Made by a program: the position numbers and the translations under genes | Notes under the pieces: generated by a model | Told to the model about the DNA's origin: nothing | Databases searched by the model: none | The model's input: the letters and a program-made list of their open reading frames with translations, nothing else | Shown here: positions 17,292-18,045 of the stretch, piece after piece | Layout of the letters: every line of letters begins with the position of its first letter | Position numbering within the stretch: position 1 is the first letter of the stretch | Source: Escherichia coli | Lineage (GTDB): Bacteria > Pseudomonadota > Gammaproteobacteria > Enterobacterales > Enterobacteriaceae | Length of the DNA stretch: 64,000 nucleotides | NCBI RefSeq assembly: GCF_050920415.1 | Contig: NZ_CP169309.1 | Direction: 5' to 3' (one strand)

Positions 17292-18045
17292 GTTGTCACC
17301 CTGGACCTGGTCGTACATTTAAGAAATTAAATCATTTCAACTTGGTTGTTAACGCAACCTGTATTTTGTTAACGCTGCGTTACGATGGAAAGTATGTCTG
17401 CGGAAATATTTTTAATAACTCACCCGCGCGTTGTATTTTTCTTTTTTTGTTCATACCAAAGTATTAAAACCCACGTAAATACGCTGTTATCTACGCAAAA
17501 AAATATTTTGTTTTCTTTTAAATTTCGGTTTTCCGCAATCAAAAATCACCAGACAGTCATTCTTCTTGCCCGTCGCTGATTGCTGCGATATGTCTTGCGC
17601 ACAAGCCGTGACAAACCTCGTCTTTTTGCAGTAAAAAATTGTCCACGGAGGTGTGGAGAAAAAACAAGAACGTTTTACATGACGAAAGGACTACACCGAA
17701 ATATTTTTTATATGCATTATTAGCAAGTTAGCACCATTTGTATGATTTTTTAAAATTGTGCAAGAAAAACCAAATGTACAACTTTTCTATCATTTCTAAA
17801 CTTAATAAAACCTTAAGATTAACATTTTAATATAACGAGTTACATTTAGTTACATGTTTAACACTTGATTTAAGATTTGTAATGGCTAGATTGAAATCAG
17901 ATGTAATCCATTAGTTTTATATTTTACCCATTTAGGGCTGATTTATTACTACACACAGCAGTGCAACATCTGTCAGTACTTCTGGTGCTTCTATTTTAGA
18001 GGCAGCTGTCAGGTGTGCGATCAATAAAAAAAGCGGGGTTTCATC
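17292..18045. promoter_or_regulatory. divergent csgBAC / csgDEFG control region
   Basis: ~750 bp AT-rich intergenic region between divergent csgB and csgD; known to hold the csgD and csgB promoters and many regulator sites (individual sites not mapped here). Confidence 0.7.

Follow-up and report, generated by a model that had tools for sequence, protein, structure and literature searches.

The csgB-csgD Intergenic Region

The window (the whole stretch of Escherichia coli DNA that was analyzed, 64,000 nucleotides of contig NZ_CP169309.1) carries the divergent genes csgB and csgD in the gene order csgCAB / csgDEFG, as in annotated E. coli. The two genes and the gap between them are located as follows.

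16836..17291, minus strand: csgB coding sequence, left flank (open reading frame and translation)
17292..18045, no strand assigned: csgB-csgD intergenic region, 754 bp, 34.5% G+C (alignment with K-12)
18046..18696, plus strand: csgD coding sequence, right flank (open reading frame and translation)

The flanking genes were assigned by annotation transfer at 99.8-100% identity, csgB being 99.8% identical to the annotated csgB of E. coli WL297. On the minus strand, the csgB start codon occupies positions 17289-17291 and opens a protein of 151 amino acids (MKNKLLF...), while the csgD ATG is found at 18046. The gap is thus 17292-18045, and the 754 bp between divergent csgB and csgD that the original prediction had described are borne out by start codons at 17291 and 18046. 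A mechanically called csgB open reading frame extends to 17318; the 151-amino-acid CsgB begins at 17291, matching the RefSeq annotation of WL297.

Intergenic gaps were ranked using the RefSeq annotation of E. coli WL297, transferred gene by gene onto the window. The csgB-csgD gap is the longest (754 bp, followed by gaps of 746, 647, and 590 bp) and, of the gaps that measure 150 bp or more, ranks third lowest in G+C content behind yceO-yceJ (0.330) and ycdT-pgaA (0.334). The earlier description of the region as among the longest and most AT-rich gaps is therefore accurate, with rank 1 in length and rank 3 in AT content (gaps of at least 150 bp). The G+C content of the gap is 34.5% (AT 65.5%), compared with 49.3% for the whole window. 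Bin 17501-18000, at 0.324, is the minimum among the 128 500-bp bins of the window, and the csgD-proximal segment 17731-17897 falls to 24%.

Published work deals with this exact 754-bp region (PMC12713406, PMC5745457, PMC13304067); the region is therefore already known, and the present strain has an intact copy of it. The original prediction had called it a known dense regulatory hub and had filed this as established knowledge. The label is apt, and the literature uses the same terms. At least 12 proteins and 5 sRNAs bind the region in K-12. Of the 32 mapped protein sites, 26 are no more than 200 bp from the csgDEFG start, and no other E. coli start site is reported to have mapped sites at so high a density (PMC5745457).

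Comparison with K-12 and Other E. coli

An alignment with K-12 had been proposed as a check on the identity of the region. The MG1655 counterpart (NC_000913.3, 1103197-1103950, reverse strand) has the same flanking genes and the same 754-bp length. Over 754 alignment columns, 745 positions are identical (98.8%) and there are no indels, so the identity holds. Flanks other than csgB and csgD, or a failure to align with K-12, would have spoken for a different region; neither was found. We put at roughly 97% the probability that this DNA is the canonical curli control region, the one that separates the divergent operons csgBAC and csgDEFG, complete and uninterrupted.

The nine substitutions relative to K-12 are at 17448, 17524, 17527, 17537, 17546, 17724, 17731, 17764, and 17818. 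The first lies upstream of the csgB promoter. Five (17524, 17527, 17537, 17546, and 17724) fall in a central spacer described below, and four fall in the regulator-dense zone, at -174, -167, -134, and -80 relative to the csgD start site. Of the latter, 17724 (-174) and 17731 (-167) are inside the zone protected by H-NS; 17764 (-134; G here, T in K-12) is in the 12-nt spacer of the MlrA palindrome; and 17818 (-80) both opens the proximal CpxR box and belongs to the right half-site of the MqsA palindrome. Since four of the nine differences are in the regulator-dense zone, regulatory fine tuning in the present strain may differ from that of K-12.

Two long stretches are base-for-base identical to K-12: 17819-18045, with the core csgD promoter and leader, and 17292-17447 (156 bp), with the csgB leader, promoter, and CsgD box. 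Results obtained in K-12 consequently transfer directly to both. The proteins differ little, CsgD by S19P and S110A only and CsgB by S98N only. When 5,426 complete E. coli genomes were searched by megablast, the region was matched in 5,371 of them, mostly at 95-99% identity, and the exact 754-bp haplotype of the window was present, 100% identical, in 4.

Two Conserved Islands across the Enterobacteriaceae

A scan of species-representative genomes with CsgD yielded 80 loci, 75 of which have both csgB and csgD and represent 22 genus-level groups. The csgB-csgD gap measures 733-802 bp in 73 of these 75 loci (median 760), at 32-43% G+C; the shorter gaps, of 586 and 589 bp, belong to two Kosakonia species. 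A length of 754 bp is therefore not a matter of chance.

A conservation profile was calculated from a MAFFT alignment, with weighting by sequence or by genus. Conservation is concentrated in two islands. The first, 17292-17470, contains the putative csgB ribosome-binding site, a -10-like hexamer, the CsgD box, and a block at 17434-17469. The second, 17731-18045, contains the MlrA half-sites, the OmpR/RstA repeats, a block at 17854-17898, the core of the csgD leader, and the csgD ribosome-binding site. As the profile peaks at these elements, the phylogenetic footprint coincides with elements known from experiment. The region consists of two conserved promoter modules parted by a poorly conserved spacer.

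The csgB Promoter Module

The csgB-proximal island has the following elements.

17292..17310, minus strand: end of the csgB leader with a putative ribosome-binding site (reverse complement ...GTCCAGGGTGACAAC before the ATG), conserved in 75 loci
17391..17396, minus strand: candidate csgBA -10 element (reverse complement CATACT), at least 95% conserved across genera
17416..17426, minus strand: CsgD box of the csgBA promoter, CGGGTGAGTTA (consensus match and conservation)
17434..17469, no strand assigned: conserved block upstream of the csgB promoter, TATTTTT ... CATACCAAAGTATTAAAA (conservation profile)

The CsgD box is the most conserved block of the island. CGGGTGAGTTA has no mismatches to the consensus CGGGKGAGNKA, which reportedly goes back to Zakikhany and colleagues in 2010; 0.04 matches would be expected by chance. 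CATACT at 17391-17396 is the probable csgBA -10, and the distance between it and the CsgD box, anchor start to anchor start, is 27 bp with an interquartile range of 27-27. The ribosome-binding site at 17292..17310 is assigned, likewise provisionally, from its position. The conserved block farther upstream has a length of 45-46 bp in all loci.

A search of the region for terminator-like hairpins returned two, where 0.5 would be expected, and both were rejected as functional terminators. The hairpin at 17344-17359, in the csgB leader, is unconserved, and Escherichia sp. MOD1-EC7003 and two Kosakonia species have lost it by deletion. The other, at 17642-17657 on the minus strand, is located in the unconserved spacer.

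The csgD Promoter and Its Upstream Regulator Sites

For the conversion of published positions to window coordinates, +1 of csgD was set at 17898, which corresponds to a 148-nt leader. This choice reproduces the published positions of the MlrA (-146/-113) and MqsA (-78) sites, and once it is made the published footprints, the other check that had been suggested for the region, fit the sequence. The footprint coordinates are second-hand, as quoted in other papers. The sites are listed in order of position.

17590..17706, no strand assigned: RcdA initial footprint in K-12, -308 to -192 (PMC3535384, converted)
17697..17925, no strand assigned: H-NS-protected zone, -201 to +28 (PMC4894380, PMC3535384, converted)
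17752..17785, no strand assigned: MlrA palindrome AAAATTGTGCA-(12 nt)-TGTACAACTTT, -146 to -113 (consensus match)
17796-17808, no strand assigned: CpxR distal box, -102 to -90 (quoted in PMC4894380)
17802..17861, no strand assigned: IHF promoter-proximal site, -96 to -37 (quoted in PMC4894380)
17809..17820, no strand assigned: variant MqsA palindrome AACCTTAAGATT (AACCTTAAGGTT in K-12), ending at -78 (alignment with K-12)
17818-17830, no strand assigned: CpxR proximal box, -80 to -68 (quoted in PMC4894380)
17839..17858, plus strand: OmpR activating site and RstA box GTTACATTTAGTTACATGTT, tandem GTTACA, -59 to -40 (motif match)
17864..17892, plus strand: csgD P1 core promoter, inside the unbroken conserved block 17854-17898
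17864-17869, plus strand: csgD P1 -35, CTTGAT (read from the sequence, identical to K-12)
17887-17892, plus strand: csgD P1 -10, TAGATT, after a 17-bp spacer from the -35 (identical to K-12)
17867..17951, no strand assigned: RcsB footprint, -31 to +54 (PMC12388358, converted; identical to K-12)

Binding of OmpR, MlrA, IHF, H-NS, CpxR, RcsB, and CsgD, together with RpoS-dependent transcription, has been documented experimentally in K-12 and Salmonella (PMC12388358, PMC3535384, PMC12713406, PMC13304067, PMC4894380, PMC5745457). Two of the sites are also recovered from sequence motifs with very little expectation by chance. The MlrA palindrome differs at two positions from the consensus AAAATTGTACA(12N)TGTACAATTTT, as quoted in PMC9662190 (0.0 matches expected), and both of its half-sites are conserved across genera. 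The AT-rich run ttttttaaaattgtgcaagaaaaacc, cited in the original prediction, is indeed present at 17746-17771 and represents the left half-site of this MlrA box. The OmpR/RstA box at 17839-17858 contains an exact GTTACA-N4-GTTACA (0.005 expected) and an exact TACATNTNGTTACA (0.01 expected), is at least 95% conserved across genera, and is identical to K-12; a high-affinity OmpR site has been placed at about -50 (PMC7409106, PMC13304067). Anchor spacings in this module are invariant, 76 bp from MlrA to OmpR and 35 bp from OmpR to the -10.

A scan of the region with the sigma-70 consensus gave 2 matches against 2.9 expected, neither of them csgD P1; it is uninformative for a promoter such as P1, of the sigma-S type and dependent on activators. 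In the region, no consensus scan for CpxR, IHF, CRP, RcsAB, RcdA, Fur, or Cra rose above chance (for CpxR, 4 matches with 1.8 expected), so sites of the CpxR, IHF, and RcdA type are placed by published coordinates only. Segment 17547-17723, which contains the RcdA footprint, has zero differences from K-12. A search for internal repeats in the region gave short AT-rich two-copy matches and nothing else, all taken as chance occurrences; among them is a second MlrA-like half-site, AAAATTGTCCA at 17635-17645, which has no partner half-site and is not conserved.

Binding of MqsA and its palindrome AACCT-N2/3-AGGTT upstream of csgD have been reported (PMC4894380). In the window, the palindrome is flanked by the two CpxR boxes (17796..17830), and the change of G to A at 17818 breaks its right half-site by one mismatch, leaving no intact palindrome. 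We considered this as a strain-specific regulatory mutation and rejected the idea, the allele being common and the site unconserved between genera. An exact 61-mer around 17818 was found with the allele of the window in at least 2,000 of 5,426 genomes and with the K-12 allele in 1,506, and the stretch is poorly conserved between genera. The published MqsA non-binding mutant altered five bases (PMC4894380), whereas the allele of the window alters one. Moreover, deletions of mqsR, cpxR, rstA, basR, and rcdA were without effect on curli expression under the conditions of one recent, systematic study, and the reported binders BasR, RcdA, BtsR, MqsR, and RstA were dispensable for it (PMC12713406). 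Given a common allele, a poorly conserved site, and the lack of a curli effect of these deletions, the change at 17818 is treated as a minor polymorphism.

A Central Spacer of Constant Length

Between the two islands lies a single segment.

17471..17730, no strand assigned: central spacer, 260 bp; no inter-genus sequence conservation, length conserved

Identity to the window in this segment is 0.26-0.42 between genera; it is 0.66-0.72 in five other Escherichia lineages and 0.93 in a sixth. A faint conserved patch is seen near 17607-17617. The length of the spacer is 258-269 bp (5th-95th percentile) and exactly 260 bp in all six other Escherichia lineages. Two anchors, the CsgD box and the right half of the MlrA box, are found together in 70 phylogenetically related loci; measured independently of any alignment, they are 352-366 bp apart in every one, with a standard deviation of 3.4 bp on 356 bp. 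By comparison, the standard deviation in these loci is 16 bp for the csgB leader, which is about 98 bp long, and 6.9 bp for the first third of the csgD leader, which is about 76 bp long. Were length variance proportional to segment length, the spacer would be expected to show a standard deviation of 15-30 bp, not the observed 3.4 bp; on that scaling, and with segments of the same loci as the comparison, its variance is about 19-80 times too small.

How this constancy arises can be read in two ways. Segment 17471-17730 may simply be non-functional filler, constant in length by virtue of a low indel rate in enterobacterial intergenic DNA, and we give this explanation slightly less than an even chance. 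It accords with the lack of inter-genus sequence conservation and with the published map, in which 26 of 32 mapped sites are within 200 bp of the csgD start and the center is nearly empty (PMC5745457). In two Kosakonia species both operons are retained although about 113 bp of the spacer are gone, and the narrow spread stands out in a comparison with segments of the same csg loci alone. However, the other poorly conserved segments of those 70 loci vary far more in length. In addition, spacer lengths do wander within genera (352-364 bp in Enterobacter, 353-366 bp in Buttiauxella) and yet never leave the bounds of 352-366 bp, which looks more like a bounded walk than like an absence of indels. 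Such bounded drift is the pattern that stabilizing selection on length would give. We therefore suggest tentatively, and with the odds still leaning against it, that the DNA from the CsgD box to the MlrA box is a length-constrained, sequence-free spacer, a "ruler", with selection acting on the distance between the promoter modules. The spacing might be imposed by a nucleoprotein bridge or loop of H-NS and IHF, by supercoiling coupling of the divergent promoters, or by bimodal on/off switching of curli.

The helical phasing of AA/TT dinucleotides was tried as a cause of the fixed length and rejected at the level of the family. In the window these dinucleotides recur with a period of 10.4 bp (z about 6), which fits the published "strong inherent curvature" of the region (PMC5745457). 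Escherichia shows a strong 10.2-10.4 bp periodicity (z 3.4-6.2), as do most Citrobacter and Salmonella; it is absent in Enterobacter, Lelliottia, Buttiauxella, and others. Because it is missing in Enterobacter, Buttiauxella, and others, phased A-tracts are not the family-wide cause; the curvature they confer would be an addition of the Escherichia/Citrobacter/Salmonella branch and not what fixes the length.

A literature search of limited coverage returned no prior description of a spacing constraint, which does not in itself prove novelty. If the fixed spacing is real, it would make the physical coupling of the two promoters addressable by simple insertion, deletion, and replacement experiments.

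The csgD Leader RNA

The transcribed part of the csgD-proximal island has the following features.

17898..18045, plus strand: csgD 5' untranslated leader, 146-148 nt (published start sites; 100% identical to K-12)
17899..17990, plus strand: Rfam ES056 (RF02752), the first 92 nt of the csgD leader
17953..17985, plus strand: leader core ACACAGCAGTGCAACATCTGTCAGTACTTCTGG, about +56 to +88, the most conserved part of the leader
17966..18016, plus strand: predicted conserved leader fold (RNAalifold, 18 genera)
17966-17972 with 18010-18016, plus strand: predicted outer helix, enclosing both hairpins (RNAalifold)
17973-17976 with 17982-17985, plus strand: predicted small conserved hairpin (RNAalifold)
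17987-17993 with 17997-18003, plus strand: predicted variable, covarying hairpin (RNAalifold)
18035..18039, plus strand: csgD ribosome-binding site GGGGT, a conserved block

The most conserved portion of the leader, its core at 17953-17985, presumably overlaps the OmrA/B pairing site described by Holmqvist and colleagues in 2010; the anchor spacing of the core is an invariant 21 nt. The ribosome-binding-site anchor (18035) is 11 nt from the csgD ATG in all 73 loci. The leader is known as a highly folded platform for Hfq and six sRNAs, including OmrA/B, McaS, RprA, GcvB, and RydC, with a start site 146 nt upstream of the start codon (PMC3985669).

The predicted fold is supported by covariation. 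In the alignment, 91.3% of cells are paired, compared with 38-46% when the partners are slid by 1-3 columns, and both sides of a pair are changed in 51 cells, compared with 14-27 in the slid controls. Not one observed value was attained in any of 500 shuffles. In the variable hairpin, compensatory changes were found in all seven pairs. The result accords with the published picture of the leader as highly folded (PMC3985669).

ES056 matches the leader over the full model (1-92) with 119.7 bits, far in excess of the gathering score of 43. This strong match, and the report of ES056 as a separate 92-nt RNA-seq species that begins at the csgD start site (5' end 147 nt upstream of the start codon) and is differentially expressed under stress (PMC4676190), might be taken to indicate an independent small-RNA gene within the region and not a part of the csgD leader. 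We regard this as improbable. The species shares its start site and strand with csgD, and its 3' end is just ahead of the variable leader hairpin. Its authors saw no Rho-independent terminator for these transcripts (PMC4676190), and our terminator scan likewise had none there. Most simply, ES056 is csgD leader RNA that has been processed or has ended prematurely.

Two further readings of the region as a whole carry next to no weight. Horizontally acquired, H-NS-silenced foreign DNA, in place of an ancestral regulatory region, would match the low G+C content (34.5%, down to 24% in 17731-17897) and the reported H-NS binding (PMC3535384, PMC4894380), but is already contradicted by the same position and length between csgB and csgD in 22 genus-level groups, all with 32-43% G+C and conserved promoter modules. 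An equally negligible chance attaches to a hidden, unannotated small-protein gene: mechanical open reading frames of 40-64 amino acids do exist (17342-17467, 17385-17579, 17580-17723, and, on the minus strand, 17420-17542 and 17932-18078), but none matches a conserved block as a whole, the longest lie mainly in the segment that is unconserved even within Escherichia, and 754 bp of AT-rich DNA are expected to yield such frames by chance.

Proposed Mechanism

By analogy with work in K-12 and Salmonella, the canonical curli control region would operate as follows. The csgD module, about 17731-18045, comprises the MlrA palindrome, the OmpR/RstA repeats, the -35 and -10 elements, a start near 17898, and the structured 148-nt leader. 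RNA polymerase with sigma-S or sigma-70 would begin csgD transcription there upon activation by OmpR, MlrA, and IHF, while H-NS, CpxR, RcsB, RstA, and others would repress it through the same AT-rich 200-300 bp. The leader RNA would be bound by Hfq and several small RNAs, blocking csgD translation. CsgD protein, once made, would bind the CsgD box of the csgB module (17292-17470), which is 27 bp from the -10-like hexamer and is followed by the csgB leader, and would switch on csgBA.

The region governs curli fiber production and biofilm development by E. coli, and it is a textbook case of signal integration at a single promoter. An intact region means that the present strain has the standard curli switch, and nothing more.

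Relation to Known Systems

By size, the csg region of K-12 stands 5th among the gaps that separate divergent operons and 13th in the full set of intergenic regions, with an AT content of 65.5% (PMC5745457). The nanC-fimB gap (1,455 bp) is likewise a large, AT-rich, curved divergent gap with H-NS, IHF, and many regulators (PMC5745457); it and similar E. coli regions have no sequence in common with the csg region and are likened to it by description.

The closest counterpart outside Escherichia considered here is the csgD (agfD)-csgB region of Salmonella enterica. It is about 61% identical overall to the region in the window, a figure that drops to about 34% for the central spacer; the opening 54 nt of the Salmonella csgD leader differ from those of E. 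coli, and the effects of RcsB and H-NS have been reported as opposite in the two organisms (PMC12388358, PMC12713406). Nevertheless, the length is similar (760 bp in S. enterica subsp. diarizonae) and the architecture is the same: Salmonella shares the OmpR D1 site near -50, the MlrA box, the CsgD box, and the conserved leader core.

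Naturally shortened csg intergenic regions

Among the 75 Enterobacteriaceae loci compared, a much shortened csg intergenic region was found only in Kosakonia pseudosacchari (locus L083) and K. quasisacchari (locus L084), where the divergent csgB and csgD genes are separated by 589 bp and 586 bp, respectively. Both loci lack approximately 54 bp of the csgB leader (aligned to window positions 17308-17361) and approximately 113 bp of the central spacer (aligned to 17510-17622). The two csg loci are naturally occurring deletion variants; as such, they could bear on the question of whether spacer length matters.

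Allelic differences at the csg locus

In the window, the palindrome of reported MqsA binding (17809-17820) is broken by one base (AACCTTAAGATT). Of 5426 complete E. coli genomes, 2000 contain the window's exact 61-mer with this allele and 1506 contain that of K-12. Compared with the K-12 proteins, CsgD (18046-18696) carries the substitutions S19P and S110A, and CsgB (16836-17291) carries S98N. The annotated CsgD of E. coli WL297, the genome whose RefSeq annotation was transferred onto the window, has the same sequence as the CsgD encoded here.

Other features of the window

The ycdT-pgaA gap (25691-26280; 590 bp, G+C content 33.4%) is the fourth longest in the window, and its AT content is a little above that of the csg region; it is a further long upstream regulatory region. 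RNA features elsewhere in the window:

23589-23676, tRNA-Ser
32519-32712, plus strand, Rfam match to Ysr251 (194 bits), within phoH
33856-33933, minus strand, Rfam match to naRNA4 (72 bits), phoH-efeB gap
49957-49999, borderline Rfam match to ES036 (38.5 bits vs a gathering score of 37.6), rutG-ymdF gap

Ysr251 is a family of Yersinia antisense sRNAs, and phoH is a minus-strand gene. The naRNA4 match is located at a 100-bp repeat (2.3 copies, 33778-34004) within the 746-bp phoH-efeB gap, and this repeat appears to be an element of the REP/BIME type. The ES036 match sits in a stretch of approximately 150 bp (49893-50044) that has no alignment to E. coli WL297.

A tandem repeat with a 181-bp unit (3.7 copies, 98% matches) occupies positions 23658-24320. 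It fills the 647-bp, G+C-rich (57%) gap upstream of the GGDEF gene ycdT, and the start of the array is contained in the 3' end of tRNA-Ser: the first 19 nt of each unit are the last 19 nt of the tRNA, AATCCCCCCCTCACCGCCA. The array looks like an iterated, attachment-site-like duplication of the tRNA end; that of E. coli WL297 is shorter by about two copies.
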